Positions 4,001 to 56,700 of a stretch of DNA of 64,000 nucleotides are shown in pieces. The position numbers and the translations under genes are program-made. The stretch spans positions 1,364,001-1,428,000 of the forward strand of contig CM074512.1 in the NCBI GenBank assembly GCA_037379345.1, given 5' to 3'. The DNA comes from Perna viridis. Lineage: Eukaryota. The notes beneath the pieces were generated by a model that saw only the letters and a program-made list of their open reading frames with translations, was not told the DNA's origin and did not search any database. The stretch's first letter is position 1. Each line of letters begins with the position of its first letter.

Positions 4001-7000
4001 GAACCCATTAATATGACCGACAGACATAAGAACGGACTGATTGGAGCAGCTACTAGATCTGCTATCATCATAGGTGATGCAGGTAAAAACAAAATAGGAC
4101 CCAAAGCAATTCTAATTTTTTACAAGGATTCTATACTAACTAAATGGAATTAACAAATCTTTATTTTTTTACTGCTGCCTAGTTTCTATTGAAATTCTAA
4201 TGGAACTTGCAAGTCTTTATTTTTATCACTGCAACACTGCCTACACTATAAAAATTCCACTAGAACTTACAGGTCTTAATTTTTACCATTGCTATCTTTC
4301 TGCCATACACTTTAATGGAACTTACAGGTCTTTATTTTTACCACTGCTACGTTTCTACTGTAACTTTTAATGGAACTTACAGGTCTTTATTTTTACCACT
4401 GCTACGTTTCTATCGTAACTTTTAATGGAACTTACAGGTCTTTATTTTTACCACTGCTATGTTTCTACTTTAACTTTTAATGGAACTTACAGAATTTTTT
4501 GCACCAACAACAAATACTGATGATTCATCTCCACTTGATCCTTCAACTGAAAATTAAAAAAAAAAAAAGTAAAAGTTTAGTTTTTACCTTCACTACCATT
4601 CTATGAAATGCAGGAAGTTAATGAAAAAATCTATTGAAGTGTAAAATGAAATTGAGCTTCAATAAGTAAGATACACCTGTTAATCTGTAAAACACAAAGC
4701 CCTATTGCAAGGCTACAGTTACTATTCCAAAATATGCTACATACCAAGTTTGATGAGATTCTGTTTAGCACTTTCAAAGGAGTTGTAATGACAGTCTGCC
4801 TCAGTTGAGAAATTTGGAAAATTTCTAAGCTCAAAGGGGCATTACTCCACAAAAAAATTAATAATATACACAACTATGTATCATATCCTTAGACTACCTA
4901 CAAATTTTCATGAAATCTGGTTCTATAATTTCCAAGGAGTTGTGCTTACAATCTGTTTCAGAGGAAAATTTCATAAAATTTCAAGGAAGCATTACTCCCA
5001 TAAAATTCAGATAAAAAAATTTCTGGTAATATACACACTAGCATACCATGTCCTAACTATCAACAAAGTTTCATGAAATTTTGTTCATTATTTTTTTTAG
5101 GAATTGTGCTTACAATATAATTTCATGAATTTTCAAAGTTATTAGGAGCATGTCTACACATATTTCAAAGTTTTGTGAAATTCTGTTTAGTTGTTTCTGA
5201 GAGTTGCCTTCACAAAAGTGTAATGCACCAACAGACAGACAGATAGAACAAAAACAACATGTCTCCCCACCAAAGTTTGAGGGGACATGATTAACTCTCC
5301 TTATAAGCATACAATAAGTTTACTACAGTCACAAGAATATGAAATTCTGCAGAACTTCAAATATTGCAACTACCTCTGACTTAAGCAGAATTCCTACTTA
5401 TTTTAATACTATTGTATCATGATATGTTAGCTACATTGTAACTCTAACTTGTTGAGACAGGCTTTTGAGTGTAATACACACCCCTAAGAAAGGAATGTTT
5501 CACCCTGTTCTTTGGTTTACACCCATTAGAAAGGAATGTTTCACCCTGTTCTTTGGTTTACACTCCTTAAAAAGGAATGTTTCACCCTGTTCTTTAGTTT
5601 ACACCCCTAAAAAAGGAATGTTTCATCCTGTTCTTAAGTTTACACCCCTTAGAAAGGAATGTTTCACCCTGTTCTTTAGTTTACATTCCCTTAGAAAGGA
5701 ATGTTTCACCCAATTCTTTTGGTTTACACCCCTAAGAAAGGAATGTTTCATCCTGTTCTTAAGTTTACACCCCTTAGAAAGGAATGTTTCACCCTGTTCT
5801 TTAGTTTACACCCATTAGAAAGGAATGTTTCACCCTGTTCTTTGGTTTACACCCCTTAGAAAGGAATGTTTCACCCTGTTCTTTACTTTACATCCCTAAG
5901 AAAGGAATGTTTCACCCTGTTCTTTAGCTTACACCCCTAAGAAAGGAATGTTTCACACTGTACTTTAGTTTACATTTCTTAGAAAGGAAAGTTTCACCCT
6001 GTTCTTTGGTTTACACCTCTAAGAAAGGAATATTTCATCCTTTTCTTCAGTTTATACTTCTAAGAAATGAAAGTTTCACCTTGTTCTTTGCTTTACACCC
6101 CTTAAAAAGGAATGTTTCACCCTGTTCTTTAGTGTACACCCCTAAGAAAGGAATTTTTCACCCTGTTCTTTAGTTTACACCCCTAAGGAAGGAATGTTTC
6201 ACCCTGTTCTTTGGTTTACACCCCTAAGAAAGGAATATTTCACCCTGTACTTTTCTTTACACCCTTAAGAAAGGAATGCTTTATCCTGTTCTTTGGTTTA
6301 CACCCCCAAGAAAGGAATGCTTCATCCGGTACTTTTGTTTACACCCTTAAGAAAGGAATGTTTCACCCTGTATTTAGTTTACACCCCTAAGAAAGGAATG
6401 TTTCATCCTGGGGGGCAGTTGCGAGGCCTTGCCACCCTCTGTACTCTTTTACGTTTACTCATAATCTTTTGTTATATGTTAACAGTTGTTTTTTAGTGGG
6501 GTTAATCTGTTTATTTCAGATATGAATTCTTTAGTAAATTGCTCAAGTCGTGGTAGATGTTTACAAAGTTTAGTTTGTGGTGGTGTATTTATATATCCGG
6601 GGGGGAAAATTTAAAGGATTTTCCAAAATGTTGAGAGGCATCTTAGTTTAACCCAAGGAATAAAGATAGTTTATTTTGTTTGTGGTATTCCTGATGTATG
6701 TGAATTGGTAAGGGATAAGAACTCCAAGTATGAGGAATCTTACATTGATACAGTTGTTGATGAGGAAGTTATCTTTAAAGCTTATATGGATAAACTTGAA
6801 ATGGTGTCTAATAGGATCAGGAATATGGGTCATCATGTAGTTTTCACAACTATAGTTACCAAAAACTTTGAGAAATGGAACACTCATAGATTATCTGTTG
6901 GTAAAACTTTATATTTGGCTTATGAGACCCAATACCCTAAGATGCAAGAACGGCTTAATGCTGTTTTGTTGGCTCTTAACCAAAGGATTGTTGCATTGAA

Positions 7001-10000
7001 CGTTAAGAATCAGGTGGCAACACCGTTATTACATAATTACACTCACCAGATATGTCAAAACGGGAAAATACGCTATAAATATACTAAGCTGATTGATGGT
7101 GTCCATCCTTCCCCGGATGTCGGGCAGAAATGGTTTGATCATATAACTAGTGTTATTGCTGAAAACGAACATCGACTGGCGAGCGTTTAGATATTTTGTT
7201 ATGCATTTATTTTGTATGCTTTATAATTTTATACTGTTCCTGTGTAGCGAGGCCTTGCCACCTATACAGTAACATGTAACCTGATTTGAATTCGAGGACG
7301 AATTTTCGTTCTTGAGAGGGGACAATGTCACAGTATAAATATTTATATATATTTTGGTATATTTTTGGTTGTTATATTTAGGTTGTTATACATTTATTTA
7401 ATACCTAAATATACTTTCGTTTATTATCTTATTTACTTTTGAGTATATTCCTATACATTCCATCTTCATCTCATAATCATAATCATTGTTATTGTAATCA
7501 TCACGTGACGGTTGACTGGACGGCTCTCCGTTAACAGGTTCACGCTGCACGGACTTTACTTTTCTTTTATTAAATTGTCATTCTGCACTTCGACTTTCAC
7601 CAGAGTGGATCGTCTTATCAACATCCTTTATTGCAGGTTAGTCAATTGTAATAATCTTTGTAAAATGTTTGATATTTGAATTTAACGGCGGTATGTTTCA
7701 TATATTATTCATTGTCTTCATTCCATTTATAATTCATGTCCTTTATTGCAGAATTAAATATCATCGTTGACAACTGGCAATTATACTTATTTTCGCCTTG
7801 CCCAACATAATCTAATGATGAGCATAATTTCCGGCGACATTTAGTTTACATCCTGAGAAAGGAATGTACTTAAGAACTTTACCTTTGCTTTCATCTGTCT
7901 GTTGGATTGCTGTATCCCATAATGACTTTTCTATGCTGCAAAAAGACAAAGAAATGTTCATGAAATATAGAATTATTTAGTATTGTATGTACATATGTAA
8001 TTGTTTTGCCACTGGCCATGTATCCTTATTCTTGATAATACAGTCAAATGCCTAAACTTTTAGCTACAATTTATTTAGGATAATCCCCATTATACCTAGT
8101 ATATTTGATATTAATTCATCTTAAAAATACACTAAAACCAGACCAACAACATGTTTAGACCTGTGTCACTATCATTTATTTACAATGTATCAGGATATGC
8201 ATATCTTTAATATATGCAATTATAAATACTAAGCAAGTTAAAAAATATATATTAAGGGTTACAAAATACCTACAGTATGTTTTTTATGATAGGAGGTGCA
8301 CATCTTCAGTACGTATATAAACAATGTGAAAACTTAAATTATATTTGTTCAATACTTATCGAGTTAAAGGTTACATAAAGTAAGTACCCTTTACAATACA
8401 AGTGATCAAAAAATGGCTAGGTTCAACTCTATTGTTCAAGTAAAACAAATATAAATTCACAGACAAAGTATGATTAAATCCAAATTTGGATAAGTACAAT
8501 GTAAGTTATAAAGTTTTAAAAATTGGTCGTTAAGTCACCAACCATAATTTTTTTAATCTGTTTTTTATTAAGTCACAGACCAGTCAATATTTAGGACATT
8601 GTAAATCTTAGAAACCGAGGAACTTGCAATTCTGTACAGAGGTAAAGTTTGACATGCTAAACAAGATAATACAAAAAATAAATGGAAACAAACAAAAAAA
8701 TTTGTTGCCCCAACTGATTTTCCAGCAAATATTTCAAAATGCTTTGATTTAGAGGAAGTTTAGATTTGTAGGCTGAAAATGATATGCTGAATCTAACTTT
8801 TGATGTTTCAAGGCCATTCAAACATTGCTGTTGCCACCAAACCTTCAAACTGCTTTGATTCTGGAGAAATTTTTAGGGTGAAAGTAATGTGCCAGATCTA
8901 AATTTTGATGTTCCAAGGCAATATGTGCACAGGGGGTGATTTGCTCCATGTTTCATTAAACATAAGCTTTAATTATTATTATTATTTTTCCATCATCTTT
9001 CGTCTTCCTATCAATGAACTTTTCCACAGAAATTCTAGGAAACTATCAGGCCGATTCTTTTAAAACTTTACACATATCCAGTACCATCTGAGGTTGTACC
9101 TAAAGTTTTAAAAACTCCAAAAAAAGGTGGCCATTTTGAAATGGCTGTCAAATAAGATAACTAAAGCTCTAGAGACCCTGAATGGCTCATCTGGTCAAAA
9201 ATGGTCTTTTTAGCTTTCTACAGCAAGATTCTTGCCCCTACCGTACTGTTGTCACAAGAATCATTTAATCAATAGAGAGCATCTTAGTTATTCACCTGGT
9301 TTTCATAGTCATTTTTTACTCTTCAAGAACAATAACTCCAACATCAATCAACAGATCTCTATGAAAATTTTGGCATAGGTCCACCTCACCATGATGATCA
9401 TTCTTACCCTGAGAAAATTTTGCTAAATCCATTAGTTCTTAAGTTATTTCTACAAATCCTCAAATTTTAGTAATGGCAGCCATGTTTTTCAACAGAAAAA
9501 AGACCTCCTCACACAGTTAAGGATATCCTAACAAACATTCTTGTCATGTTTGTTTACAATCCATCCTACTAGCAGTCTTAGAGGAGAAGAGGTATGTGGA
9601 GAAAACATATTTTCCCTTACAAGACCAATTTATATGACATTTTTAGTTATGGGTTGAGTTTGTGTGAAAAACCAGTTGCTATGGCTAACCATGTACCCAT
9701 TAATGGTGTGCTTGATTTGCAATGTCTCTATATAAAGGTTTAACATTAATTAGTTCATGTATGTATTATTCATAATTATAGTTTACATTTCAGATAGAAT
9801 TTGGAAAATATAAGTCTAGCTGAAGGTCAATTTTTCAGTGTTTGTTACGTTGCTCCGTAAGCAGGAAAGTGTAAACTATTTTCACTTAATAATTTGATAT
9901 TGTAAAATTTTGCAGAGCTGAGCTTTGAAGTGCTTAGTATTTGGAAATATAAGTATTCTTTTTACAGATTAGTCACTTACATGTACATCATTTTCTATTG

Positions 10001-18286: not shown

Positions 18287-18959
18287 AACGCATAAAACTA
18301 TATGGGCATAAAACTCACAAAAATTCACGAGCATAAAACTCACAAAGTTCAAGATCAAAACAGATTCAGAAGCAGAATCGCGTATACTGTGGGTGATTGT
18401 ACCTTTATCAAAGGCTCACATAAGCAACTGATAAGGAGCCTGAATGAAAATAACAAAGAGGGTCTTTTTATCAAAGTTGCAATTAACTGTGGAAAACAAT
18501 TTAAAAAAATAAAAAGTCCAAATATAGTAGTACGGCGTATTGATGTATAGCAAGTAGTGCTGTACTAGCCATTGACCACATATCCATTTTGCAGGGGTCT
18601 TATAACTAATGTAATAAACGTCTAAATACGATTAACATCACCAAAAGATGGTAAAATTTAAATTGAATATTTCGGATAACTGATATCCGTCTTTAGCATA
18701 AAACTCACAAAGTTCAAGGTCAAAACAGATTCAGAAGCTGAATCACGTATGCTGTGGTGATTGTACCTTTATCAAAGGCACTCATAGGCAAATGATAAGG
18801 AACTTGAATAGTAAATAACAAAGGGGGTCTTTTTATCGAAATTAAAAATAAAAATTAACTGTGGAAAACAATTTTAAAAAAGTCCAAATATAGTAGTGCG
18901 GCGTTTTGATGTATAGCATTTAGTGCTGTACCAGCCTTAGACCAAGACCTAAAAATGGA

Positions 18960-19295
18960 TTATTTTTTCTCGTTTATTCCATCTGGAGAAGTTGTTTGTA
19001 ATTTGTTTATCCAAAAGCTTTCCCGAGACACTCTTTTACATTTTGGCCAGTTTTTATTATGTTCTATGATCGTAACAACAATGTTGTGGAGATCCTCCTG
19101 GGTGTGTACGGCGGATCTAAGATGGCGACTTAGAGGGAGGTCTGGTTTGTATTTGTAGTCACTGCGATGACCATTCATACACCTGTTGAAAGGTTGTTCT
19201 GTTTCGCCAACGTATTGCATACCACATCGGCACTGGAGAAGGTATATGGTATTTTCGATTTTGCAAGTCACGTCGCAAAAAATGGCGAATTCCTT
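18960..19295 (-). pseudogene. PLE GIY-YIG endonuclease fragment
   Basis: CKIENTIYLLQCRCGMQYVGETEQPFNRCMNGHR...RESFWINKLQTTSPDGINEK. Confidence 0.9.
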
Positions 19296-19479
19296 TCCAG
19301 TGCAGTAGCTTTCATGCCAAGAAATACCCCCAAAAATTTCTGGTCTGCCCCCTACAGGCACTAATTATCTTTGGTATCGTGATAGTACAGATGTGGTCAT
19401 TAATGTATCTATTATCTCAGCGGGTTGTAAAGTTGGATTTTGGAGCGGTTTGTCTTGGCGTGTAAACGTTTTGGTGTGC

Positions 19480-20293
19480 AGTATCTGGGTACTCGGATAC
19501 TTCGGCGCATTTGCTCATCTGACGATACCATCAACAAACGTCTAGATGAACTCCGTGGTCATTTGTTATCGCGTGGCTACAAATCAACAGGTGCAGATCG
19601 GGGATTTGAACGTGATAACAACATCAGCCGTAATGATCTCCTCGAGTACAAACCCAAGAAAAAGAACAGAAGGGTTCCTTTGTGCTTACTTGCCATCCAG
19701 TCTTTGGGAAACTCGCAGCTACTTCATTCGAATTGGGAAGACATTCAAAAACATCCTAAGCTCTCAAAGCTCTTTCCTTGGGCCCGGTCTGTAGACCTAG
19801 GAGACTAAGAGATGCCCTAGTAAGAGCAGAGATTTTATCTCAGCCCAAACAAAATACAACGGGGCCAGTGTCGACCATGTGGAGATAAAAGATGTAAGAC
19901 CTGTACCCAGATACTGCGCACCAAAAAGTTTAACAGTAACTGCTCTGGAAAGGAATTTCGAATTTGCCATTTTTTGCGACGTGACTTGCAAAACCGAAAA
20001 TACCATATACCTTCTCCAGTGCCGATGTGGTATGCAGTACGTTGGCGAAACAGAACAACCTTTCAACAGGCGCATGAATGGTCATCGCAGTGACTACAAA
20101 TACAAACCAGACCTCCCTCTAAGTCGCCATCTGAGATCTGCCGGACACATCCAGGAGGATCTCCACAACATTGTTGTTACGATCAAAGAACATAATAAAA
20201 AACTGATCAAAATGTAGAAGAGTGTCTCGGGAAAGCTTTTGGATGAAAAATTACAAACTACTTCTCCAGATGGAATATAAACGAGAAAAAATA
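19480..20293 (+). pseudogene. PLE RT-thumb, Zn-linker and GIY-YIG fragment (frameshifted)
   Basis: Motifs are spread across ORFs 19440-19808 and 19879-20217 with several frameshifts. Confidence 0.88.
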
Positions 20294-20640
20294 ATTCATT
20301 TTTGGGTCTTGGTCTAAGGCTGGTACACCACTACATGCTATACATCAATACGCCGTACAACTATATTTTGACTTTTCTTAATTGTTTTCCACAGTTAATT
20401 CATTTCTTAATTTTGATAACAACATCCCCTTTGTTATTTTCATTCAGATTCCTTTTCATTTGCTTATGTGTGCCTTTGATAAAGGTACAATCACCCACAG
20501 CGTACGCGATTCAGCTTCTGAATCTATGTTTTGAGTTTTATGCTGAAGGATATCGGTTATCCAAAAATTATGTAAGTCTAAAGAATTGTAAAACGATACC
20601 GATATAAAGATGTTAATACACTATAATAAAACATATAATG

Positions 20641-20680
20641 AGGCAAATTTTCGGTCTACTAATGACCTTCTTCAGAGCCT
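20641..20680 (-). ncRNA. Minimal hammerhead ribozyme motif (left arm)
   Basis: aggct-CTGAAGA-a-ggtc/attagta/gacc-GAAAATT-tgcct. Confidence 0.6.
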
Positions 20681-20697
20681 TAAATAAAGTTTATTTA

Positions 20698-20737
20698 AGG
20701 CACTGAAGAAGGTCATTGGTTGACCGAAAATTTTGCT
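20698..20737 (+). ncRNA. Minimal hammerhead ribozyme motif (right arm)
   Basis: ggca-CTGAAGA-a-ggtca/ttggt/tgacc-GAA-AATT-T-tgct: stem I, intact core, 5-bp stem II, palindromic stem III. Confidence 0.7.
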
Positions 20738-21270
20738 AAGTATATGTTTTATTATAGTGTATTAACATCTTTATCGGTATCGTTGTACAATCCTTTAGAC
20801 TTATATACATATTCTTTCTGCTAAGTTTCATGTTTTTATAGTTCTTGCTCTATATATGCTGTGTAGTGTGCTGTTTTTAGTATGTATAATAATTCATAGA
20901 CGCTTTATAACGCCGTGAATGCTAACTCTTTTAGTGGAATGCTGCTATGATCCTCTGTAATATATGTTGGTGGGTGGGAATCGTAGACATTCTTTACCAG
21001 TATTCGGACTTATTATATATTATTTGGACTGAACCGATTTATATTGATTCCACACCTTTTACAAGCACTTTATTTTACTTGCATATGCACAACGTTGGTA
21101 AAGTACAGTTACTTTACAGTTCTCATCGAAGTTCTCAACCAATTTTGATGTGTGCTTCAGATAGTGGAGGAAATACTTTACAGGCCTTTAGTGTGACGTT
21201 TCTTTCCCTTATACTTTAGAACCCTAGTGTTATTCTTTCGGTTGTGGTCGGCAACTTCTACAACTATATA

Positions 21271-22995
21271 ATGACAAGTGCGTGGCTGAATTTTTTAGCT
21301 TGCGAAGGTTACGAACTTCTCCAAAAGGCGATAAAACTTTCTGAAGAAGATTCAAACGATGACCCAGAGGATGACCCATATAGATCAAAATACAGATCAA
21401 GAGATATTTACTTCCAAATGCAAGAAAAGCTGAAACACTGTTTTGAAAACAATGAAGACGACTTAGACTATCGTATTATCAATTCAGTTCTGTATTTGAA
21501 ACTTGGCATAAATTATATTGAGACTGAAGAATTAGCATCTGGAGAAGAAAATATTCTGAAAGCTGTTGATGAATTAGAAAAATACAAGTTCGAGCAAAAT
21601 GTGGTGAACACTTTCCAACATCTTCTTAATAATTTGGGCATTCTCTGGACAGGAAGACGTGACTATAAGAAAGCATTGCAATACCTTCAAGACTCAGAGC
21701 AGGTGTGTGTAAAATTCAAGCAAGAAGTTGGAGGTGTGCCCAAGGCAATGGAAGAATATGTAGCGAAACCATTTGATGAAGATAAATTAGAAAACAGGAG
21801 AAATTCTGAATTTGAGAAGACCTACACTTTAACTTTATACTACATGGCCCAGGTGTATGCCAAAATTGATGAAAAAGAATTGTCTGCTGAATACTGTCAA
21901 ATAACATTACGCCGTCAGCTAGAATGGGATACTTATGATCCAATGGAATGGGGAATTTGTGCTGCTACTCTCTCTCAATATTTCATTTCAACAGACGATT
22001 TTACAATGGCTCGTCACTGTTTAGCATGTGCTGAATTTATATACCAAGAGGCGGTTGAAAAATCTGGTCCAGAAGATTCTGAAGAGAAACTAGAGAAATT
22101 GAAACAAGGAAAAGCTGATATTGAGAGATGTTGGGTTAAATATGGACTGGCCTTATTGGATTCTTCTAAAAATAGATTGATGATAGATGATGATGAAACT
22201 GCTGAAAATAAAAAGGAGTGCAAAAGAAAAATGTTCAACTTAGAGGTAACTTCACGTGAAGAACAAGTTACTGATCAATATGTAAAAGTCTTTTCTGAGG
22301 CAAGAAATGTGTTTCTGCGTATCCAGCAATGGCTCAATTCTGCAAAGGAATTCTATGTATTAGATGGTCATTGCAATGATCATGTTGAAATTTGTCAAGA
22401 CCAAAGTACAGCCTACAAAAGCTTGGCATTTTTTGAAATGGATATGGACAGGCAGTGTAAAATGCACAAACGGCGAGCTGATCTAATATCAACCTTGATT
22501 AATGAACTGAATCCCCAGTTCTATCTGCTTGTAGTCAGACAGCTACTATTTGAGCTTGCAGAAATATACAGCCAAATGCTTGATATCAAGGTTGCAATCC
22601 TTCAAGATGAAGAAGTACAACCAACATCTCATGCTTTGAAGAAGATAAATGCTTTAGCACAGCAAAGCATTGCAAAATATGATGCTTATCTTAATACGCT
22701 AAAAAAGTCTGGAGAGGCTGACTTACCAAGTGAATTTTGTGCCGAGGACACTCGTCCAGCATTAGTGGCCATGTTCTGCAAAGGGCGACTTCATTCAAAA
22801 TTTGTCACACCTGAAATTAACCAAAGGTTAGCAAACATTCAAAGAAGTATTAACTGCTATAAATATGTTGTTGATTACTGTGAAAAATATCCATCTGCTG
22901 GATGTTTGATTCAAGAGGAGTTTAACATTTGTAAAGAAATGGTGGTGTTGTTACCTGTTAAAATGGAAAAAATCAGAATTGGATCAGAAATTTAA
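21271..22995 (+). CDS. KIFBP: KIF-binding protein (KBP/KIF1BP), 574 aa, uninterrupted CDS
   Basis: Intact ORF from ATG 21271. Family motifs DPEDDPYRSKY, LGINYIETEELASGEE, LNNLGILW, YTLTLYYMAQVY, ATLSQYF, ARHCLACA, RQCKMHKRR, LNPQFYLLVVRQLLFELAE, ICKEMVVLLP (TPR-like helices and KBP_C domain). Confidence 0.96.
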   Translation: MTSAWLNFLACEGYELLQKAIKLSEEDSNDDPEDDPYRSKYRSRDIYFQMQEKLKHCFENNEDDLDYRIINSVLYLKLGINYIETEELASGEENILKAVDELEKYKFEQNVVNTFQHLLNNLGILWTGRRDYKKALQYLQDSEQVCVKFKQEVGGVPKAMEEYVAKPFDEDKLENRRNSEFEKTYTLTLYYMAQVYAKIDEKELSAEYCQITLRRQLEWDTYDPMEWGICAATLSQYFISTDDFTMARHCLACAEFIYQEAVEKSGPEDSEEKLEKLKQGKADIERCWVKYGLALLDSSKNRLMIDDDETAENKKECKRKMFNLEVTSREEQVTDQYVKVFSEARNVFLRIQQWLNSAKEFYVLDGHCNDHVEICQDQSTAYKSLAFFEMDMDRQCKMHKRRADLISTLINELNPQFYLLVVRQLLFELAEIYSQMLDIKVAILQDEEVQPTSHALKKINALAQQSIAKYDAYLNTLKKSGEADLPSEFCAEDTRPALVAMFCKGRLHSKFVTPEINQRLANIQRSINCYKYVVDYCEKYPSAGCLIQEEFNICKEMVVLLPVKMEKIRIGSEI

Positions 22996-41700: not shown

Positions 41701-44700
41701 AATTTGCGAATTTTTATTTCATCTGGCGACAAAAATAACCAGTTGGCCATTTTCTTCTTGGTGCCTAGGTTTTGTTTTTTAAAATTGGCAGGATGTTTAT
41801 CTGCAATAGATATTCTTTCTAATTAAACAATTGTGTTTACACCTGGTAAGAGTTAATTGACCATGACCAATTGATGACTGAAGGCAATTAAAGGCAATTA
41901 GACCAGACCACCGTGGCTGACAATATCTTCATGGGAGTTGTCAATCAAATGTAAATATATTATTGAGCCAATCAAAACTCTCATCATCTGGTAAAAGGTC
42001 AACACTATTATGGCCATATGCATGTGGCTACATACAAGCTTCACAGCCCTGTTTAGCCATGTGATACATTCAGAAACAGACTTATGCAATAACAGAATAA
42101 ATTAAATCCAATTCACAATGAATTTCCCATCAGGAAGTGTCTTAATACTGTCATATTTTTTTTAAAAAAGTATAACTGTTTTGGCAACCTTTGGCTCTAA
42201 TTTCTGAAAATTGGTGAAACATTATGGCAGCTGGCGATTTTTCTAGAAACCTTAAACAAGCATGTTTTTTTTCTTGGCCTTAAAACAGAATAATACCTAT
42301 GTACAATGAGAAGGGGGCAGTTGAGGCTTCGATGAATTGAAAACCATTCACTTGAATAAGCGGCCAAATAAGTTAGATATACTTGCTTCAGTTTAATTCA
42401 TTTTTCATACATCATTATTATACCTTCTCTAAGACATAACATAAATTATTACAAAGCTATAATATGCACCTTTAACACTCCAGTTAATTTGACAATGAGA
42501 TAAACCTGTAGCCAACAAAAGAGAGGAAAGGAAAATTTTTTTTGATAATAAAATTAAACAATCAATAAAACTGTCAAATATTAACTTAATCAAGTATAAG
42601 AATGATATAGTTTCTTCCCAGTCTATTTTTAGTTGTGGATAAACACCTAAACTTAGATTAATTCAGTAACTATTTTACCCATATCAATATCTTTTACATG
42701 TACAATATTTTGGTCAACATTTCATATATCATATTAAATAAACCTGTTACAGTCATCCTGTTTGTTAGTCTCTTGTTCTATTACAGTCATCCCACATTCT
42801 TCGTTACAACCATCCTGCTGATATTTTTACCTTTTACCTTTTATTTTTTACCTTGCAATATCTCATAAATCATACATTTTACCCACATGCTTCCTGCTTC
42901 AAATATCCAGCATTGATGAATGACTATCTGTCATATTTATTTTGTTGAATAACTTGAATAGACAACTTTATTAGAGGAAAACATTCTGACCGGAATTTCC
43001 ATCTTCCATCTTGGGATGAATGTAACGGCTGTTAGAGTCAGCCGCTTTACCCCAGTGTAATGTTTCAACATGTATCAAAATTCACTAGAGAGCCTATATG
43101 ATATAGACATTACATTCAATGCCAACATTACAGGCAGGTTTTTTTGGTAAATGTTTTACTTAATTCAACATGCTATCAATATTAGGCAACTTTGCTGGCA
43201 TACTAACCTATGTTGTGGTTTAGGACTGCTGTTAGCACTACTTATTGGTGAGTCTGTTTTTTGTACTATTTTCTGTGCAGCAGTCTTCTGTCGGAACCGA
43301 GAGATATCTTCTGAAATAAACAAATATATGCCAAATCCTTTGTAAAATTAGACAATTCATGGTCTGTTCAACCATTTAAACATTATAATTAGACAATTCA
43401 CGTCCTGTTCAACCATTTGAACATTATAATTAGACAATTCACGTCCTGTTCAACCATTTAAAAATTATAATTAGACAATTCACATCCTGTTCAACCATTG
43501 AACATTGCATTGCATTAACTGGAAACCTAAAGAAGTATCTTTTACAGCATGATAAAGTACAATATATATTCAATGTGAATGTTCCATTGATATTTAATGA
43601 AAATGTTCCATTGATATTTAATGTGTTAGCTCCATTGATATTTAATGTGTATGTTCCACTTATATTTTATTTTAATTCTGATGGAGTTATAAAACACAAA
43701 CCTTTGCTATCAGTATAGTTCCGTGGCCCCGATGATGAACTACTGGAAAACGATGTATCACTCAGATTATTTGTTTTCGGTTGCTCTGGTCCTCGATTTA
43801 ACAGAAATTTAGTGTTTTGTGACTGTTTTAACAGTTCTAATGCAATATTGCCATGTTGTACAGAATTATCTGATAAGAATGTGGGTTTACGGTACCCAGT
43901 AGCACTATATACTCCTGGAATGGAGGTCATACTTGAGGCGTGATCTGACTGTTCACTAGAGTTATCTCCCCATCGGGGACCAGTATACTTGAACTGGTTC
44001 ACTTTAGATCTGTTAATAGGACTAGGACCTGAAAGTAACAACAATGATTTTGAATAAAAAATGAATAAGTTTTATTTTAAGTCTGCATGATAAGTACTAA
44101 GAGTAAACATAAGATCTATACAGATTGTAATAACTGATATTCCAATCATGAAAAACAGCAGGCATTAAACCTAACCTTCTCCTAACCCAGTATGAAAAAA
44201 AAAACATTCAATAAACAAGTTAAACAACTTTCAATATAAAATTAACTCAATTATTGTTCAGACATCAGGCTAGTTTCTGGCTCTCTTGAGCTCTACTTCT
44301 CTGACTTTTCAAGTATCAACCCATAACCTTTCCCAGCCTTTCTTTTGTGGTATGACACCTTATGTTTCACTTTCGAATCGATCATTAATTTCACCCAAGT
44401 AACTAACATGACTCTAAATGCCTATAGACAATAAGGAGGGCATATCATAGGTGTCAAACCACCTTTGGTCTAAAAATAAATATAGGACTGTAGGAGGTTT
44501 CTTTTTTTCAATTCATAGGGCTGATAAAGAATGTATACAGATTTTTAAATACATTAATACGAATATATGGGGGTTTAAGTGAAGGTTTTGCGCGGAAAAT
44601 CTTTCGTTTCCACCTACAAATCTAGCAAATCTTGTATTACACCAGGCATAATATAACAACAGAAACAAAGAAGACATCTATTTATGCTTTTTCTTCTTTC

Positions 44701-47700
44701 CATCTTCACTTGTTTCCCTCTGCTGTCTCTTAATTGACTTTTCTCCATGGCTTTAAGAACTGCTTTCTCTTCACTGACATTTCTCCATGGCATTAAGAAC
44801 AGCTTTCTCTTGACTCCTCTCAATGGCCCAAAGAATTGCTTTCTCTTAATTGACTTCTCTCCATGGCCTTAAGAACTACTTTCTTTATAACCTGCTCTTT
44901 TTCAACATGATACATCTCATGGTTTCCCATACCAAATCCTTTATCTGTCATTGAGTAAGCAATATGCTTCCTCTGAAAATTTGTGTTGATCTATTCATTA
45001 TGTAACTATTGTGTTAAGTGATCATGTCTCTCGTGAGCTGTTAAGTTGTTTGATAAAGATCTATCTGAACAAAACAGAAAAATACTTGTGACTGGCTTCT
45101 TAAGGCCCTTACTTCCTCAGCAGTTAAAGCCATAACACCAAAAACTGATACAAACCTTTCTTTTTATGGTATGGAACCTTGTAAAATTTTATAAAGATCG
45201 ACCAATAGTTTTGCCCCTACTTTAATCCCAAAGGTGAAGATACAAGGAACGAAATCTCAACTAAAACATTTCACAAAAATCAAATACCATTTCTATACCT
45301 TGGCATGATAATTGTAACAGTAATCATTTATCAATCTACTAAACATTTATTTTTCAACGTTTACAAAGCCAACTAACGTGAATATTTATTTTTTTTTTCT
45401 TTTCCCTGTCAAGTTTGACATTTGTATTAATTTGTCTCTACATCCCAATTAGTGATTTAAGCATCACATCCACAATATAAAGGTTTAACTTACTGATAAG
45501 ATAAGCATAATCTGAGCTATCCCTAGAACTAGCTCTCTCATGCTTAATATCCTCTGTACTACTATAATGATGTCTCTCTAACACAGGATCAGTGTAAGCA
45601 TGTTGGAGAGAAGGATTTCGATGAAGACTTCCAACTCTGTGCTGATGAGTTACTGAACTGAATGGAGAATTTTTCATGTCCATTCTGAAATTAAAAGAAA
45701 ACAAGAAGTTTCTTTATAAAGATAAAGCCATTCATTAGATAATGTTCTATGACACTCTTAAAGCAGGAAATATAGAGCTAGCTAAGCAGTGGACAAACAT
45801 GGGAGACAACAAGAAATTCTGCAAAGCTCATAAACCTTCGTCTAGTTGTGCATAACCTTCCAAATGTATCAAAAAATATTAAATACATGTAAGAAGGTAT
45901 ACACCAGTACTTAATTTTTATGCAATGGTTCATGTATTACTTTATAAGATGGAGAGAGGGTACTATCAAAGTGCTTTGCCCTTTTTATGAAATGGTTCTA
46001 AGTAAAATAAACTACTGGTATTTGGCCAAATCAATGGATCAATGGTAGTAAACTAGTTCATCAACACAGCTAAAAATAGATAACTTTTAAATAAACATCT
46101 TAAAACTTTAAAACTAAAGACGTGCAATGATAATAATTTACTGCTATGTATTTAACTGTTGAAGTATAAAATCAGAGAATATGATGAAGGTGAAACCTTT
46201 TAACGCTCCTGAAGAAACATTAATAAAAACAAAATTTTAGTCAGCTCTTATTTGATATGTTCTATCTTCAAGTATGGTAAATTTTGTAATGATATATATT
46301 TGCCCTAAAGCATTATACTAATTGTCATGGTCTGATATGTCTATTGGCCGAAATGTCTGGCATTTCATAAAGAATTATTGGTTTTCGTAGTCCGAGATGT
46401 CTTTGGGTCGAATTGTCTGGCACTGGTTAAGATTATGGTTCTTAAAATTAGCGAAACATCTTAAAAGATTTCTTTTATTGTATTTAGTTTCTCTGCATTC
46501 TGTTTCATTTAGTATAGTTTAATTGTGTTTTTATTACGATTTGATTCATTTTATCGAATTGTTTCGTTTCAATTCTTTCTTTTATCAATTATTTTCGTTT
46601 CACAATTTTTATGACCCAAGAATTATGGGTAATATTGATGACGTAATTTTTGTAAACATCCGGGAGCCATACTGCAGACTATAAGGCCAACCCTATCTTG
46701 GAAAAACCATGATCCGATTTGTATTTAATTATCGAAGCTAGCAAATATTTTCCGAAACTGGTTTGGCACTCAATTGCACATACGCAAGTATACACAAATG
46801 AAGCTGCCATTATGCTGTTTTTCAGCTCCTGAAAATGCAGGTACAAACTGAATATTGATGCTTTTTCTTGCCACAAGTATACAGAACCAAGTTGATAATA
46901 CAACTTTGGGAGCGTATTATTTGGATCTTTTTATCACATTTTGACATAGAATAAAAAATATGCAATATACACAGAATAATTTCGGAACTCACTATAGTTA
47001 AAGATTGGCAATCCTTATCCATTAATGGCAAATTTTCCGTTTAGCAATTTGAAATCCTGTGTCCATGTTGATAAAAAAAAAAAACAAAAACAAAAACAAC
47101 AAAATATGAAATGCAGAGTACTGTAGCATTATATGACATCAATGCTTTAAAGGTTTCATTTAAATTCAACTTGTGGTAAAAAAATAATATGAGAAGGACA
47201 TTTGAAAGTATTCAAAAACCAAGACAGACAATGCACAGGATCATTAAAAATGTGAAAATTCCTGCAAAGTTTTATTGAAATCCATCAAGTAGCTTATTAG
47301 GAGTTAATTAAATGTGTAGTGCATGAATAGATGGAGGAACTAACAGTCAGGGACACTCATGACTTTATACTTTCCTAAAGCTATAATTAGGATAATGGAA
47401 AATACAAACAGTGATGTCAGAAGTAGACAGTAAAGCTATTTTATGATCAGAGTACTGAAATAGATAAACAAAATAGAGTTCAATAATGTTATAATGAGAA
47501 GTTTACACGTTAAGTAGGGATTTCACATGATGTCATGCTAAGGATCTAACATTTAAAGAAAGTCAATCTAAAGCAGAGCTGAAAATAAGACACAATATAC
47601 AACTCACTATGTCAAAGCTATATCTACCAAATAATATACAACTCACTATGTCACAGATATATCTACCAAATAAGACACAACTCACTATGTCACAGATATA

Positions 47701-50700
47701 TCTACCAAACAATATACAACTCACTATGTCACAGATATATCTACCAAATAAGACGCAATATACAACTCACTATGTCACAGATATATCTACCAAATAAGAC
47801 ACAATATACAACTCACTATGTCACAGATATATCTACCAAATAATATACAACTCACTATGTCACAGATATATCTACCAAATAATATACAACTCATTATGTC
47901 ACAGATATATCTACCAAATAATATACAACTCACTATGTCAAAGCTATATCTACCAAATAAGACACAATATACAACTCACTATGTCAAAGCTATATCTACC
48001 AAATAAGACACAATATACAACTCACTATGTCACAGATATATCTATCAAATAAGACATGATATACAACTCATTATGTTACAGATATATCTACCAAATAATA
48101 TACAACTCATTATGTCACAACTCACTATGTCACAGATATATCTATCAAATAAGACATGATATACAACTCATTATGTCACAGATATATCTACCAAATAATA
48201 TACAACTCATTATGTCACAGCTATATCTACCAAATAAGACACCATATACAACTCAATATGTCACAGCTATATCTACCAAATAACCAATAGATGTGTATGT
48301 TTGACATTTAAGTCCTGTCAATATTCCATATAAAGTTTGTTAAAAATCAACAAATAGGGAACATTAACAATTATTTGCTTTAAAGACAACCAAGCTCCAT
48401 TTTGATTAAGTTTTTCACCCCTGTATCCTGGACATCAAATGTTTAATCAATGTTTATAAATGACATTATGTTGATTCTTATTCTCTTTGTTTAACATGAA
48501 GGTTCAAGTGTCATTGATGGCAATAACTGTGTAAAAATATAAGAACAAGATTTCCACTTTTGCTATTTTCCAAAAGATTAAGAGGAGAATTCGACCTTAA
48601 TTTTCAAGGTCATATTCCCAAATATAATCTAAAAGATAAAAAAGGAGAAACTACCATATAATTTGCTGTAATCAACACTCTTTTGGGTGAACTCAGCCTT
48701 CAGACAGCATAGGAATGGTAAAACACTGGTTGCCTTTTATTCTAATGTAGTACAATTTTGAGAATTTAGATTTTCACTAACAAAACCAGTAACATTTATT
48801 TCAAAGTGTTGCATTTCATGTGACATGAAATAAAAAAAAAATCGAGGTTTTTCCCTAAATTCAAATTGAGTGAGAATCCTTAAAAAAGAAATAACTGAAA
48901 ACTAAAATCAGCATAACTGAGATTAAAAAATATATTACATATTAACAAAATGAAACAAGCTTTGAAGCAGTTACAGTTCATGCAGAGATAAAGATCATGC
49001 AGGGAAAAAGTTAACACTGGTACCTAGTGGGTGTCAATGGTTTCTTTAGGAGTGGGAGTGTCATAGATCCACGAATATTTTCAGGTGATTCATCAGACTC
49101 TCGTAACTTTGTAGAAAGTGTAATCTCCCTCAAATGATAAGAAGTTTCACTAGAACTGCTAGACATATCTCTTGAGTGTCCTTTCTGCCATTGTTGAAGA
49201 TTCTCTGTGGCCATCAGAGCTGCTTTCAATGTCTTCAGTGATGTAGAGTGACAGTCTGTGTGTAGCATAGCCACACCCCTGTAAAGGTCAACGTCATGGC
49301 AATATGTCAAAGCACGAGAAGATAACTCTAGCAAGTCAAACATGCCAGACTTGAATGTGGTACAGCTTTTTTTCAAATTCTAGCAGAAAATGGTGATGAA
49401 GTGCAGTGTATATGAAAAGGTGTCTATGAAAAATATGATATCATTAGGATCAAACCGAGAATAAGAGTAGTTTTAGTTTCCTATTAGTATACTATTATCA
49501 CTTCAGGTTCAATATCTTAAAAATGCATTTAAAATTTATTTGCAGTATTTAATTAATCCAATTTCCTCCCTAAAAAGACACCCCAACTGAAATCATTTTG
49601 TTGTTATGCTGAATAAGACAGGTAAATATACTATTGTCCAAAGGAAATCTTTACGGATTGGAAAAATAAAAATGATACAAATCTATTCCCCATAAATGGC
49701 AACTAGAATATAAACATCAAGGACTGCTGTAACATACATCATACAATAATAGAGTTATGTGAGCAGTGTATACAAATGTTACCAATAGTGTGTAATATAC
49801 ATGTGTTACACTCATTTTACATTTATAATTAAAAGTAGAATCATACCTGGGAGTACCATCATTAAATGGATCAATCACTGTCACTCGTACAGTTACAGAG
49901 GTTCGCAGACACTCTACTAGTTCCTCATGTGTCATGGTTGCCACTGAGATTTTACACACCTCAACAAGACGACTACCTTTTCGAAGACCAGCATCATAAG
50001 CAAACCCTGTTGTCTCAACATCAGTAACAATTCCTTCACTTTGGACATGGAATCCAAGCTGCCCAAGGCCATTCCGCTTCAAAGTCATTTCTTGGGTCTA
50101 TCATTAAAAAAAAAATAAATAGAATTTCGTGTATTAATGAAAAAACTTCTGTGGTTTCATTTATGTATGGGTATCACATCCTCAGATGTAGCTAAATAGA
50201 AGTGGTCACATTACTCATGATCAATCACACAACAGATGACCATACTGGTCACTTTAAAACTACTCAATCACACAACAGATGCACATTCTGGTCACTTTAA
50301 AGCTATTTAATCATCACACAACCTAAGGACATACTGATCACATAATAACTGAACAATCACACAACAGATGGACATAATGCTCACATAACAACTGATCAAT
50401 CACACAAGAGATGGAAATACTGCTCACATAACAACTGATCAATCACACAACAGATGGAAATACTGCTCACATAACAACTGATCAATCACCCAACAGGTGG
50501 AAATACTGCTCACATTACTCATGATCAAAATCACACAACAGATAAAAATACTGCTCACATTACAACTGATCAATCACACAACAGATGGACATACTGCTCA
50601 CATAACAACTGATCAATCACACAACAGATGGACATACTGCTCACCTAACAACTGATCAATCACACAACAGATGGACATACTGCTCACATAACAACTGATC

Positions 50701-53700
50701 AATCACACAACAGATGGACATACTGCTCACATTACAATTGATCAATTACACAACAGATGGACATACTGCTCACATAATATCTGATCAATCACACAACAAA
50801 TGGAAATACTGATCAAACACACAATGGATGGACATTGAGAATCCAATACCCCTGAGAGTGCAAAACAGAGAAATCTTAAGAGATTTTCAGTTCTCTAACC
50901 AGCATTTGCCGAGTTATCTTACTAAAGGATGTCTGAGATTTCATAGTCTTGCATTTTCTTGTGGTGTTTGTTTTTTTTGCACTTAAAGGTTTTATTATTA
51001 TTGAGCCAATTCAGAATGCCCTGTTTGCAAAAATTCCATAGAAATTGCAAGATGTCATAAAACGTTTTACTGTTATGTCATAAACATAACATGTTTTATC
51101 TCACCCACAAATGAGATAAGGACATCTTATATGGCTAAATACAATAACTTCCTTGTCCCTTTAGTGAGAAATACTAAGCACTTTATAATTAGTCAGACAC
51201 TTACCTCACAGCCAGATGTGACCCCAATTAATCTATCACAGATCTCTCTTGTTTCTTCCATTTCACCACTCAGAGGTTTTACATAGACAGCCTCCCCTTG
51301 ATTGAAATATATTCTTATCCTAAAACAAAAAAAAACGATATAGCATGATAGTGTCTTAACAGCACGTGTACAGTCAAACCTATCTCCTCAGACATTGCTG
51401 AATACAGGTTTACTTCCAGTAAAACTTGTAGCTTTAGAGGTCAAGCCACCAAATTAGACATTGCCTTTAATGGGACTAATACTCCTGAAGCCTGTTGAAC
51501 CCTGTACATTTAGAAAACAATGTGGACACATGATTCATATTGGACATAATTAAGTGGTGAATAGACTAAGCATTTTTGACACACACATTTCCTGCCGTTT
51601 CTAGAACACCAATTAGTACTATTTTTCTGTTGTTGACAGCACACAATGACAGAATATGACTTCACTTTAAACATAAATTTTGGACAATATGCACTTCCCA
51701 ATGTGGTAATTTAACACCACATTAAATTTCATACTAATCCTGAAAGTTGCTAAGGAAGAGTTGAGTACAACACAAGACCATAAATTCCCTACAATATGCA
51801 CATCCCAATATGGTAATCTAATACCCAATCCTGCAAGTTGTTGTGGAAGAGTTATGGATAATATACTGATATGGCGTATATTTCACACCCCAATTTGGTA
51901 ATTTTACACAACATTAAATTTCATACCAATCCTGCAAATCATTGAGGAGGAGTTGTGAACAATGCATTTTTTTTGTTGTTTTGCTGAAAAATGCCCAAAT
52001 ACAACAGCCATTATTTCTACAATTTTCATCCAAATAAAAATTCTTGACAGTATGTACATCTCCATGTGATCAACATGTAAAACATCCCATCAAGTTTATA
52101 ATAATGCTACAAGATATTTAGAAAATAGTTTAGACAGTGTGAAATCTATGTAGCCCCAAAACTTTGTTTGCAGGGGTAAAAAAAAAAAAAAAAACAGAAA
52201 ATACTTATCCTGCCCTGCAGCATGAACCCAGCACAAAAACACAAGAGTAAATACTTACCCTGTGGCTTGAGAGGTCCAGTCCTAAAAACCAGTATATACT
52301 GTAACGATTGGGCTACAGATAGCTATATTAACCAGTACCTGCAGGCTGGCAAGCTTTTATTATTCATGTATGCTGATATTATTGTCAGTCACGTGTTGAC
52401 ATAAACATTTCTCTATTGTTGTTTGTTGTATTTATTGTATTGTATGCTATTGCCGGGAAAGCCGTTTAGGGTATGGTTCATCCTCATAGTTTCCCAGTCT
52501 GCTTTAGTTCAGCCTAATTCCTATTTCATGACCCCTTCAGATTTATCCTCATAATAGCGTTAAGGGATATATTGTTACCCTTTTACTTACTCGTATATGT
52601 TAAGGCCCTTTACCCCGTTCATAGTAGTAGATATCTAGTTATCTACATTTGGCTCCATTATCCAGTTTCTGGAAGTGAACTCCACAGTGCGACACCCTGT
52701 AATTGGGGGAATGTTTATTCGTCCAATCAATGGCGCGCCACAGCACCACAGTGGAGATGTGGAGTCTGATATAAATTACACGTACGCAGACAACAATTCA
52801 GATTCGGTGACCAAGGAACCATACCGTGCATTTTCTGTACAAGTTATTAAAACCAAACCTGTTGGATTTTATCTGTACCAGTAAGCACCCCAGTGGATAC
52901 CTAGTTTAGTTGTACACCTACTAATTTACATACATTATTGATTTATGACGTAGTGACCCGACATGACCTGAATACCAGACCTAAATATTTACTTTGCTAC
53001 TACTATGAACTCCGAATCCCATTCCCGTCATACATACATTTAAGGGGGGTCCTTGGATTATTCAAGTGTGTGTTTATTGTATGAAAATTGCTTTATTATT
53101 GATATTCATGTATCAATAAATTGTTATTTATTTAAGTTTCTCTTACTTAGACTAGACAAAACAGTGCCTCATATATATTAAACAAATCAGTGCCATATCA
53201 TGCTCGGCCACACTTAACCTGATACCAAGGTTACCTTTGCAACCAGAAAAATAAATAAAACCAGTGTTTTGGGTGACCCCCACCCAAACGTGACAATATT
53301 TACCCTAAAGCTTAAGAGGTCAAGCCCCCAAAAAACAGAAAATACTTACCATGTAGCCTAAGAGATCCAGAGCCAAACAAACCAGTAAATACTTACCCTG
53401 TAGCCTGAGAGATCCAGAGCCAAAAAACCCAGTAAATACTTAACCATGTAGCCTAAGAGATCCAGAGCCAAAAAACCCAGTAAATACTTACCCTGTAGCC
53501 TGAGAGGTCCAGAGCCAAAAAACCCAGTAAATACTTACCCTGTAGTCTGAGAGGTCCAGAGCCAAAAAACCCAGTAAATACTTACCCTGTAGTCTGAGAG
53601 GTCCAGAGCCAAAAAACCCAGTAAATACTTACCCTGTAGCCTAAGAGATCCAGAGCCAAAAAACCCAGTAAATACTTACCCTGTAGCCTGAGAGGTCCAG

Positions 53701-56700
53701 AGCCAAAAAACCCAGTAAATACTTACCCTGTAGCCTGAGGATCCAGAGCCAAAAAACCCAGTAAATACTTACCCTGTAGTCTGAGAGGTCCAGAGCCAAA
53801 AAACCCAGTAAATACTTACCCTGTAGTCTGAGAGGTCCAGAGTAAAAAAACCCAGTAAATACTTACCCTGTAGCCTGAGGATCCAGAGCCAAAAAACCCA
53901 GTAAATACTTACCCTGTAGCCTGAGAGGTCCAGAGCCAAAAAACCCAGTAAATACTTACCCTGTAGCCTGAGAGGTCCAGAGCCAAAAAACCCAGTAAAT
54001 ACTTACCCTGTAGCCTGAGGATCCAGAGCCAAAAAACCCAGTAAATACTTACCCTGTAGTCTGAGAGGTCCACAGCCAAAAAACCCAGTAAATACTTACC
54101 CTGTAGCCTGAGAGGTCCAGCCTATTACAGCACCACAGTGAACAGTGAAAATAACTTCACCAGAAACCTCCTCAATAACAACTAAAACTTCAGAAGAGAT
54201 TCCCAGGAAACCATCTACTGATGTCGCTAATCCATAATCCTCAACCTGGAATATAGCATAACCCTTACATTTTAGTTTTTTATCAAGTTCACTGTAAGTA
54301 AAACTACATGGAGTAATTGAAAAATGATTACTTAGTATTCAATACATTAAGTTTGTTCTATAGAACTAGAGGCTCTAAAGAACAAACTTAAGCGCTCACC
54401 TGGAAAATTTGAAATCATGTGGTCATATCATTTGATCATTTAAAAAAAAGTTTAAAGAGTTCCCTATTCTACATCATTCCTGTCATCTACTGAACCATCT
54501 GAAACACGTAAAGGAAGAAATATCAGCCAAAATGTGTTTCTCCATAGGGTTTCAATAATAGTAACTTTAGAGTGGCCACATACACCCCTTAGCCACCTGA
54601 GCCTCACAAAAAGTGGATTGTTTGTATTTGTAGAGGGCATTGAGATCATTAAGATTCAAAACACTTTCAGAGAAGCTGATCTTTGAAAATTGGCCAATCA
54701 GAAGCTTAAATAAAATAGCCTCTGGTGGCCATCGTGTTTAATCAAGTAGAACAAAAACACATGTTTAAGTTGTCCCTTTCTAACAAGTTTGGTCACCACT
54801 GACTATGCGTAGGCCAAAATGTGTTTCCAATAGAATTTCAATGACAACTTTGAGTGGCTGAAGCCACCCGCTGAGCCATCTGAGCCACACAAAAAGTGGA
54901 TCCTTTGTAGGGGATATTGAGGTTAATAACTAAGAAGTTTCAAAACATTGGCACTTATTGATTCAGAGGAGTTGATTTTAGAAAACAGTGATCAGAAGCT
55001 TAGATAGCCTCTGGAAGCCATCTTGTTTAACAAAATAGAACCAATAGTGGGTATTTGTAGAACCTCTTGCAAACATCATTTCTGCCAAGTTTGATAAAAA
55101 TTGGTCACGGGGTTTTCATGTAATTGAGCAGAATGTGAAGTTTATGGATGACAGACAACAGAAGAAAAGTGATGATATAAGCTCAGTGAGACATTTGGTC
55201 CAGGTGCTAAAAATAATGCTGGTGGAAACCGACATCATAAAAAAAGTCTCCTGCTATTCCAGAAAAAAAATTCTCCCCACCCGATCTTATTATATTCATT
55301 TACATGATTTAATAACTTAAACAATGGCAAAGCAGCCATGTTTTTTTCGTGAATAAAAGTCATTTTGTGCAGGATACCCTAAGGAACAATCATACCAACT
55401 TTCATCTAATTCTGTACAATAGTTTCTGAGGAGAAGATTTTGAAAGTAGTAACATCAAAAACAGCAAAAAATGTCCAAAAAGGGGAATAACTCCAACATA
55501 GGTCCACAGATTTTCACTAAAATTAAGCCACAGACAGATCTTGTCATACTGAACAATTGAACCAAATTAAAATTTGGTTTTGGAGATATATGCAAAAAAC
55601 TGCTGCCTGACCCCTATGTTCTTTTTTTTAGCAATGGTGGCTATGTTTTTTCATGTATCAAAAATCCAAACAGTCATTTTGTGCAGGATTCCCGAAGAAA
55701 CAATCATGCTAAGTTTCAACCGAATCCATTTACTTCTTTCAGAGGAGATGTTTAAAAAATTGTTAATAACGACAATGGATGCCAAATGAGCTAAATTTTA
55801 ACCCTGACCTTAACTTTGGTCTATGAAATTAAATATATATAGTGTTCCAGATTGTCATAAGGACTATATACTACATGCGGCATCTTTGACCTAAATAAAT
55901 TGAAAAATATTGATTTAAGTGTGTTTACAAAGATATTATGGAAGGATGGAAGAAAAAAGTCAGACCTTAGTGTAAGTATCTGAACTTCCTTGGTGTAACA
56001 ATACCTGAACATTCCATATTGTGGTTCCTAATGAAAACAGATCAGGGATGACTTTCTGTTTTGTTTTTTCCTTCTTCCTTACACTTCCCAAACCAAATTT
56101 ACCTAAAAATATAGCAAAACAAATACTTTATCTCATTCTAATGATAAGAATACTTGGTCATACTTGTATGTCTTGTGTACAATACACAATTTAAAAGCAG
56201 GTCTGTATCAATTTTCACTATATTGAATCAAATATGAAACCAGCTAAAAAGAACTGTAAAGTCATAATTTGTTGTTGTTTATATCATTACCAATAATTTG
56301 AGTTAAAATTGTATTAAATATAAGTCTCAAATTATTAATTTTCAATATAAGCAAATCATTTACAAATATTGCAAAAATTTAAGAGACTGTCCATGTAGAA
56401 ACCAGTCAAATTCTATAATATGGGTACCACAGAGTTACCATAAATTGTATCATACAGTTGTTTTCGTTCTAATGTAATGTTGAACTTATTATGATATCAG
56501 AGTGAACAGGGATTTTCCCGTATCAAAAGTGGATGATTGACACTCTCTTAAAATTGCAGCTCACTACAATATACAAAGTTTGCAATAAGTAAAATAGTTA
56601 TATGTGCAACCTAAAAAGAAGGATACCACCTGCTTAGATTATCTCTACAGGAATAAAGTTATGCCCAGAAAGATTTATTATAGGTCAATGGTATAGAGTT

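Follow-up and report, generated by a model that had tools for sequence, protein, structure and literature searches.

A dead LTR-retrotransposon copy in Perna viridis carries an SGNH-fold esterase gene that appears to follow an F-type env in related elements

Esterases recur in unrelated retroelements (CR1/L2/RTEX, Penelope, Ngaro, Vesta), and one open idea is that they act as a stand-in for the envelope protein (env). Here we describe such a gene in a stretch of 64,000 nt from Perna viridis (GenBank assembly GCA_037379345.1, contig CM074512.1, positions 1,364,001 to 1,428,000 of the forward strand), referred to below as the window. An SGNH-fold esterase pseudogene lies here near the 3′ end of a truncated long terminal repeat (LTR) retrotransposon (6411–7839, plus strand). 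An earlier note, made from the DNA letters only, had read the locus as a Gypsy-type element with a spliced esterase in place of env, an architecture that it did not know as a well-characterized family.

Among described systems, the bdelloid Vesta elements carry a GDSL/SGNH gene as open reading frame (ORF) 3 and have no env, and an env-like role of this gene was doubted (Rodriguez, Kenefick, and Arkhipova, 2017; PMC5408684); the accessible text of a review restates both points (PMC5718144). The window family resembles Vesta1 in that an LTR element with TG..CA ends carries a GDSL/SGNH ORF after pol, with intact catalytic residues, no transmembrane domain and a proposed auxiliary role. In Vesta1 the esterase is ORF3 of an element with a dUTPase but without env or chromodomain, and its amplified GDSL ORFs measure about 1.3 kb, with invariant residues reported intact, whereas, comparing by description, the ORF of the window family measures 0.67 kb, lacks the Asn of block III and is located after an F-type env in relatives with a chromodomain. 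An SGNH/GDSL ORF3 in LTR retrotransposons has been in print since 2017, and in this respect the architecture is not new. The order gag-pol-env-SGNH, on the other hand, is probably new: no description of a gag-pol-env-esterase element was found in the literature searched, a scope that leaves out Repbase and most subscription journals, which may hold such elements.

A chromodomain-bearing clade of errantiviruses with an F-type env ("ancient errantiviruses") has been described from Mollusca, Annelida and Cnidaria (Chary and Hayashi, 2026; PMC13524379). Its gag-pol(chromo)-env(F) order is found again in the Mytilus coruscus relatives of the window gene and in an element designated L001, both discussed below, and the 514-bp LTR of the window element falls inside the range of 244–1,595 bp given for bivalve elements in the accessible tables of that paper. 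The elements are described there as having three ORFs, whereas the window lineage would have a fourth gene; term searches of the main text and seven supplements, as far as these are accessible, found no mention of an esterase or SGNH domain. In the accessible part of supplementary file 1, the mytilid elements Mcal_3, Mvir_1 and Mvir_2 have internal regions of 9.5–10.3 kb, compared to 7.8–8.6 kb in the other 16 of the 19 bivalve rows with LTR coordinates. As a weak lead, these three are candidates for a fourth ORF; L001, at about 9 kb, has no SGNH gene. Accessory genes had not been shown for errantiviruses according to the accessible text of a 2012 review (PMC3383448), PMC6238403 gave no match for esterase, lipase or hydrolase, and in PMC9025612 and PMC7599744 SGNH occurs only in the reference lists.

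The esterase of the ZfL2-1 ORF1 protein (CR1/L2/RTEX; PDB 4C1B) shares with the window family the SGNH fold, the Ser-Asp-His triad, a basic character and its coding by a retroelement. According to the accessible text, this enzyme is active, slow, and binds acidic phospholipids and liposomes; the authors proposed a role in membrane targeting and named depalmitoylation as another possibility (Schneider et al., 2013; PMC3905857). Unlike the window gene, it is encoded upstream of pol, within ORF1p together with a coiled coil, and it keeps the canonical Asn. This esterase gave no sequence match to the 141-member profile of the window family, and the two genes were therefore probably captured independently. 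In Ngaro elements a stand-alone SGNH ORF of unproven function is the last, fourth gene, as it would be here, but Ngaro has a recombinase and split direct repeats, not an integrase, a polypurine tract (PPT) and a TG..CA LTR (accessible text of bioRxiv 2021.08.05.455354).

Our preferred reading, held with moderate confidence, is that the window contains a dead, 5′-deleted Ty3/Gypsy copy from a lineage within the chromodomain-bearing, F-env "ancient errantivirus" group of marine invertebrates, this lineage having the order gag - pol(chromo) - env(F) - SGNH - PPT - LTR, in which the last gene would encode a spliced, cytosolic accessory esterase. The ORF runs from an ATG at 6522 to a stop codon at 7188–7190 (plus strand, 222 codons) and is interrupted by one in-frame stop at codon 31 (6612–6614), as the earlier note had described. 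Its end is close to the PPT (123 nt) and to the TG of the LTR (135 nt), again as described. With the window protein, Pfam returned Lipase_GDSL only, at E = 0.026 and below the cut-off, and a sequence search of the PDB gave spurious beta-propeller repeats only. Seven relatives were found at 28–96% identity, the closest of which, P0003 (96%), has an open frame. The window copy differs from P0003 by eight replacements and the stop; at 6 of these 8 sites the relatives agree with P0003, which fits decay after insertion. A profile made from the seven relatives matched 1,261 clusters at E ≤ 0.001, of which 168 also passed E ≤ 1e-30, and among the matches listed 148 of 150 were 130–342 aa long. An alignment of 141 members with about 24–60% identity was used to characterize the family, only 14 of which are picked up by Pfam at E ≤ 0.01; a large, well-conserved esterase family is thus mostly missed by this database.

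An AlphaFold (AF2) model of P0003, built from the 141 sequences, reached a pLDDT of 95.2 and a pTM of 0.90, and its top structural matches are SGNH hydrolases (3p94: Z 16.7, rmsd 2.9, 174 residues aligned). Foldseek returned 55 PDB matches at E ≤ 0.001 and the ZfL2-1 esterase (4c1b) at E = 1.5e-4, and the matches in BFVD are generic phage esterases. The predicted SGNH fold of P0003 is clear from this model, and the fold first proposed from motifs, for which Pfam alone gave weak evidence, is borne out. All four motif blocks named at the time (I, II, III and V) can be located in the window ORF, where the triad codons Ser9, Asp192 and His195, the block II Gly27 and the DGVHP motif are present; block III, however, reads GIPD (GxPD) and lacks its name-giving Asn. 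The same holds for the family. Ser, Asp and His are intact in 125 of the 127 scorable members (of 141), and block II has Gly in 128 members (Ser in 7, a gap in 6), while the block III Asn position, whose register was confirmed by alignment against GTND, is occupied by Pro in 76, Cys in 52, Thr in 7 and Asn in 3, with 2 gaps. This Asn is one of three oxyanion donors (accessible text of PMC10792757). An Arg follows the nucleophile in 127 of 129 members, and our guess would be that it compensates for the lost Asn. The family has the SGNH fold with a variant site and is not a canonical SGNH enzyme family. Among its other members, P0016 (2,135 aa) contains six tandem SGNH-family repeats with degenerate catalytic motifs and is possibly a domesticated, inactive derivative; many distant members (e.g., P0036, P0053, P0080, P0133) have at their end a low-complexity, acidic tail in which an SPKRSW-like motif recurs, which the clade of the window gene lacks.

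The genomic context of the gene is visible in two gene models of M. coruscus. In P0022, on a contig of 100,023 bp, an integrase tail is followed by a chromodomain (Pfam E = 1.5e-4, weak), a cysteine-rich env segment and the SGNH domain, and in P0160, on a contig of 40,145 bp, the integrase C-terminus (SH3_Tf2-1) is followed by an env of greater length and by an SGNH domain that is nearly complete. Searching with the cysteine-rich segment of P0022 found 87 proteins, many of which carry the PF12259 Baculo_F domain (about 31–44% identity) and come from Pecten, Haliotis, Pinctada, Argopecten and other molluscs. P0243, from the same family, combines reverse transcriptase (RT), RNase H (RH), an integrase zinc finger, a chromodomain and env. 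The F-type label derives from Pfam Baculo_F in these relatives, since an env profile searched against the PDB had one marginal match; P0160 itself had no Baculo_F match at E ≤ 0.01, and the env-like part of P0022 had no usable match in the atlas. In a FastTree phylogeny of 155 sequences, P0003 falls in a 16-member clade together with P0022 and P0160 (support 0.92). Where neighbors are visible, the gene order suggests an esterase that comes behind env as a fourth gene and does not substitute for it, and we infer an env in the parent element of the window copy. Longer fused SGNH forms were absent among 6,454 candidates of the search with alignment A2, a weak negative, and a scan of GTDB with the SGNH clade gave six pattern matches, none of which was confirmed.

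No pol survives in the window copy. When nine gag-, pol- or env-bearing proteins were compared with the window by tblastn, they matched the SGNH ORF alone, and an env profile gave no match to the window, so that the labels "Gypsy" and "env position" cannot be read from the window itself. The Gypsy-type assignment is supported by way of the relatives, in which pol has the Gypsy-type order (RT-RH-integrase (IN) in P0243, protease (PR)-RT-RH-IN in L001), and of a signature at the 3′ end. L001 (1–9613, JBEVXT010000364.1) is one of two loci with env, among 44 matches, from a GTDB scan with env, neither of which has an SGNH gene; the other, L002, has less than 500 bp after env. L001 carries gag, PR-RT-RH-IN, a chromodomain and Baculo_F, with the gene order permuted. 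It is a eukaryote-type element inside a Sedimenticola metagenome-assembled genome, where it is most likely carried over from the host. Although the window element and L001 have no DNA similarity, each has a single hairpin made of an RGGA loop on a perfectly paired 6-bp stem, across 128 kb of window strands (7289–7304, plus strand, loop AGGA) and 19 kb of L001 strands, respectively. Both hairpins stand 31 nt before an LTR that starts with TGTCAC, and their stem sequences are unrelated. Such a hairpin may be general to chromovirus-like Ty3/Gypsy elements; it therefore supports the Gypsy assignment and does not imply an env.

The ORF probably has its own splice acceptor, as judged from its sequence and that of its relatives. 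A pyrimidine tract with AG (6495–6519, plus strand) ends 2 nt before the ATG at 6522, and a TTTCAG site that is equally pyrimidine-rich lies within 10 nt upstream of only 8 of the 2,736 ATGs in the window (103 of 2,736 when any YAG site that good is counted). At the level of the family, the test covers the 18 of 129 members with an upstream extension, the other 111 having none that could be used. In 13 of these 18, an acceptor-like translated tract occupies the last four residues before the family Met, compared to 4.8 expected from shuffles and 2/18, 3/13, 2/9, and 0/5 in windows further upstream. Ten of the 13 tracts are phase-0-like and three phase-1-like and the Met is kept throughout, suggesting that the protein starts at its own Met. 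The acceptor reported at first sight is in line with these results, and ORF3s of LTR elements are typically expressed from spliced messages (Rodriguez et al., PMC5408684). In P0013, residues 1–44 form a leader that resembles gag N-termini through a short L-R-S motif (shared by four of 86 env-set proteins, of which two have gag domains), as if a gag leader might have been spliced to the SGNH ORF; phmmer found no significant match, and we take this as a lead only.

Several observations weigh against the preferred reading. The env context comes from two automatic gene models of one species that are 94–97% identical to each other and could be haplotypes of one locus, or could have been joined to a nested neighbor; they are only 38–40% identical to P0003 and the window ORF, and the five closest relatives (P0003–P0007, 48–96%) have no visible context. 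Only these two of the 87 env-type proteins have an SGNH domain, and L001 has env without one. With the block III Asn kept in just three members, catalysis may be weak or altered. In the acceptor test, which was made on translated DNA, a Gln may be encoded by CAA and not CAG, the rows are not independent and the pattern was picked after inspection. The hairpin motif was likewise defined after both sequences had been seen, although its uniqueness and spacing were not fitted. A similar motif stands before the PPT in many chromovirus-like elements, which the literature search did not confirm.

We regard it as rather unlikely that the gene has the same cytosolic accessory role but that the family of this very copy has the order gag-pol-SGNH and no env, the layout assumed in the earlier note, or is a non-autonomous derivative. 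About 110 nt of the element are left upstream of the ORF, without a trace of env, and the env-less layout is known from bdelloid Vesta1 (PMC5408684). The contig of the close relative P0005 measures 8,135 bp, about what an element with three genes would need, and env is often lost in errantiviruses (accessible text of PMC3383448). However, the sole clade members whose context is visible have env upstream of the esterase.

It is improbable that the gene belongs to another class of element (Ngaro/DIRS with a 3′ SGNH ORF, Penelope, Helitron, or BEL/Pao), or that a host esterase merely happens to adjoin a solo LTR. The lack of pol in the window would permit this, and, in the accessible texts, an SGNH ORF follows the recombinase in Ngaro (bioRxiv 2021.08.05.455354) and a Helitron-borne SGNH gene has been reported (PMC4021074). 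Against it, the ORF and the LTR entered a satellite array as one block with a PPT and a TG..CA end, the 3′ signature is shared with a PR-RT-RH-IN element (L001), and the gene is intronless and its clade tied to a Gypsy integrase. Ngaro/DIRS was rejected as the window element has neither split direct repeats nor ends of the inverted terminal repeat/internal complementary region type (the longest internal exact repeat is 16 nt), and Troyka is ruled out by the CG ends of that element (accessible text of PMC12440569).

The start of the protein bears on where it would act. The start Met lies within 13 aa of the catalytic Ser in 102 of 129 members, a hydropathy of 1.6 is reached by 5 of 141 (the maximum in P0003 is 1.38), and the isoelectric point is 8.6–9.3 in all nine clade members checked. 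No signal peptide, fusion peptide or transmembrane anchor was apparent in the SGNH ORF from fold, hydropathy and start position, with no dedicated signal-peptide predictor being run. The start near the nucleophile, the missing anchor and the basic character point to a cytosolic or particle-internal enzyme, and not to a fusogen or a surface receptor-destroying enzyme. A secreted or virion-surface O-acetylesterase that destroys receptors in partnership with the F protein, like the viral hemagglutinin-esterases, has little probability: bacterial sialate O-acetylesterases are near the top of the fold matches (7pzg, Z 15.8), the gene adjoins a fusogen in relatives and the HEF esterase domain is an SGNH-fold family (accessible text of PMC10792757), but the best fold matches are generic and hardly differ in score, the start lies within 13 aa of the nucleophile in most members, the acceptor phase varies and P0003 has no N-glycosylation sequon. 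That the esterase-fold protein replaces env, as the earlier note had it, and mediates exit or entry alone is very improbable despite its position before the PPT, its own acceptor and the binding of liposomes by SGNH proteins of long interspersed elements, for which help in vesicle transfer was speculated in the accessible text of PMC3905857, since P0022 and P0160 have a true F-type env between integrase and SGNH, the protein lacks both a membrane anchor and the space that a signal peptide would take, and Rodriguez et al. doubted the same for Vesta1 (PMC5408684).

For the preferred, env-bearing lineage we propose the following history. An integrase would have inserted the provirus into a 41-bp satellite, as indicated by the PPT, the TG..CA end and the interrupted array; a deletion then removed the 5′ part, and the ORF decayed to its present state, as shown by the stop and eight replacements relative to P0003. 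Intact copies would make the SGNH gene product from a spliced subgenomic RNA, using the acceptor by its own ATG. The product may be a soluble, basic, cytosolic serine esterase, its triad being intact and its oxyanion hole non-standard. By analogy to the ZfL2-1 esterase, it could be an accessory enzyme that attaches to acidic membranes and cleaves an acyl ester, either of a phospholipid or of a protein S-acyl group, when particles are assembled, transported or released, leaving fusion to env. A membrane-related accessory function that supports env-bearing particles is, on this analogy, the most likely role. The esterase appears dispensable, as a related F-env element lacks it.

More tentatively, and with somewhat less confidence than we have in the reading of the window copy itself, we suggest a "complex" errantivirus lineage of marine invertebrates in which gag, pol and an F-type env are joined by an esterase gene that is spliced separately and whose product has a non-canonical oxyanion hole; such elements would carry most of the 1,261-cluster family, the enzyme working with env in particle assembly or spread. 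If true, an enveloped Metaviridae lineage would possess an accessory gene that encodes an enzyme. An esterase beside an intact-type fusogen argues against a stand-in for env and for an auxiliary, membrane-related job, and a four-gene lineage in which some natural variants have the esterase and others lack it would allow a comparative test of its role.

The window copy itself is an ordinary dead fragment, the 3′ end of an element of which the 5′ part is deleted. It sits within a tandem array of 41-bp units (22.7 copies, 5478–6410), which is host sequence outside the element, and which resumes directly after the LTR with a last, degenerate piece (7840–7868). As the array stops at 6410 and resumes after 7839, the boundaries of the element are supported. 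The surviving 3′ end of the internal region (6411–7325, plus strand), from which the 5′ LTR, gag, pol and any env are lost, ends in the PPT (7314–7325, plus strand, 11 of 12 purines). The 3′ LTR follows (7326–7839, plus strand, 514 bp), with TG...CA ends whose termini form short inverted repeats (5 of 6 bases matching). A TGT after a comparably G-rich purine tract is found at only two sites on both strands of the window. Neither a second LTR, which would confirm the first, nor a target-site duplication was found in the window, and Rfam gave no match within 5400–8000. Candidate polyA signals lie in the LTR at 7569 and 7753 (plus strand). The LTR also contains a 13-nt acceptor-like repeat (7624–7636 and 7739–7751), the first copy of which is directly followed by a donor-like GTTAGT (near 7637) that could define an LTR intron of about 115 nt or a donor for subgenomic RNA.

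The SGNH cassette is bracketed by an exact direct repeat of 16 nt (19 nt with one mismatch), with copies at 6421–6436 and 7247–7262 (both plus strand), that contains a 6-nt palindrome; in Markov simulations of the element, a repeat of this length occurred in 2 of 500 runs. The second copy forms the tip of a long predicted stem-loop in the 3′ untranslated region (about 7235–7275), and the structure predicted for 7230–7330 has z = -4.3. The repeat could be a scar of the capture of the gene, a route for loss of the cassette by recombination, or an RNA signal.

Elsewhere in the window, many unrelated minisatellite arrays with units of 15–55 bp are found (40 rows), and the element landed in one such array. 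A nested inverted duplication at 18357–20807 (arms up to 242 nt, 96%) has weak GIY-YIG coding fragments, a layout that we take to be typical of Penelope-like elements. A single-exon ORF for a KIF1-binding protein (KBP_C) is present at 21220–22995 (plus strand), and exons of a PDZ-containing host gene, presumably SIPA1L-like, extend over about 43667–62960 on the minus strand.

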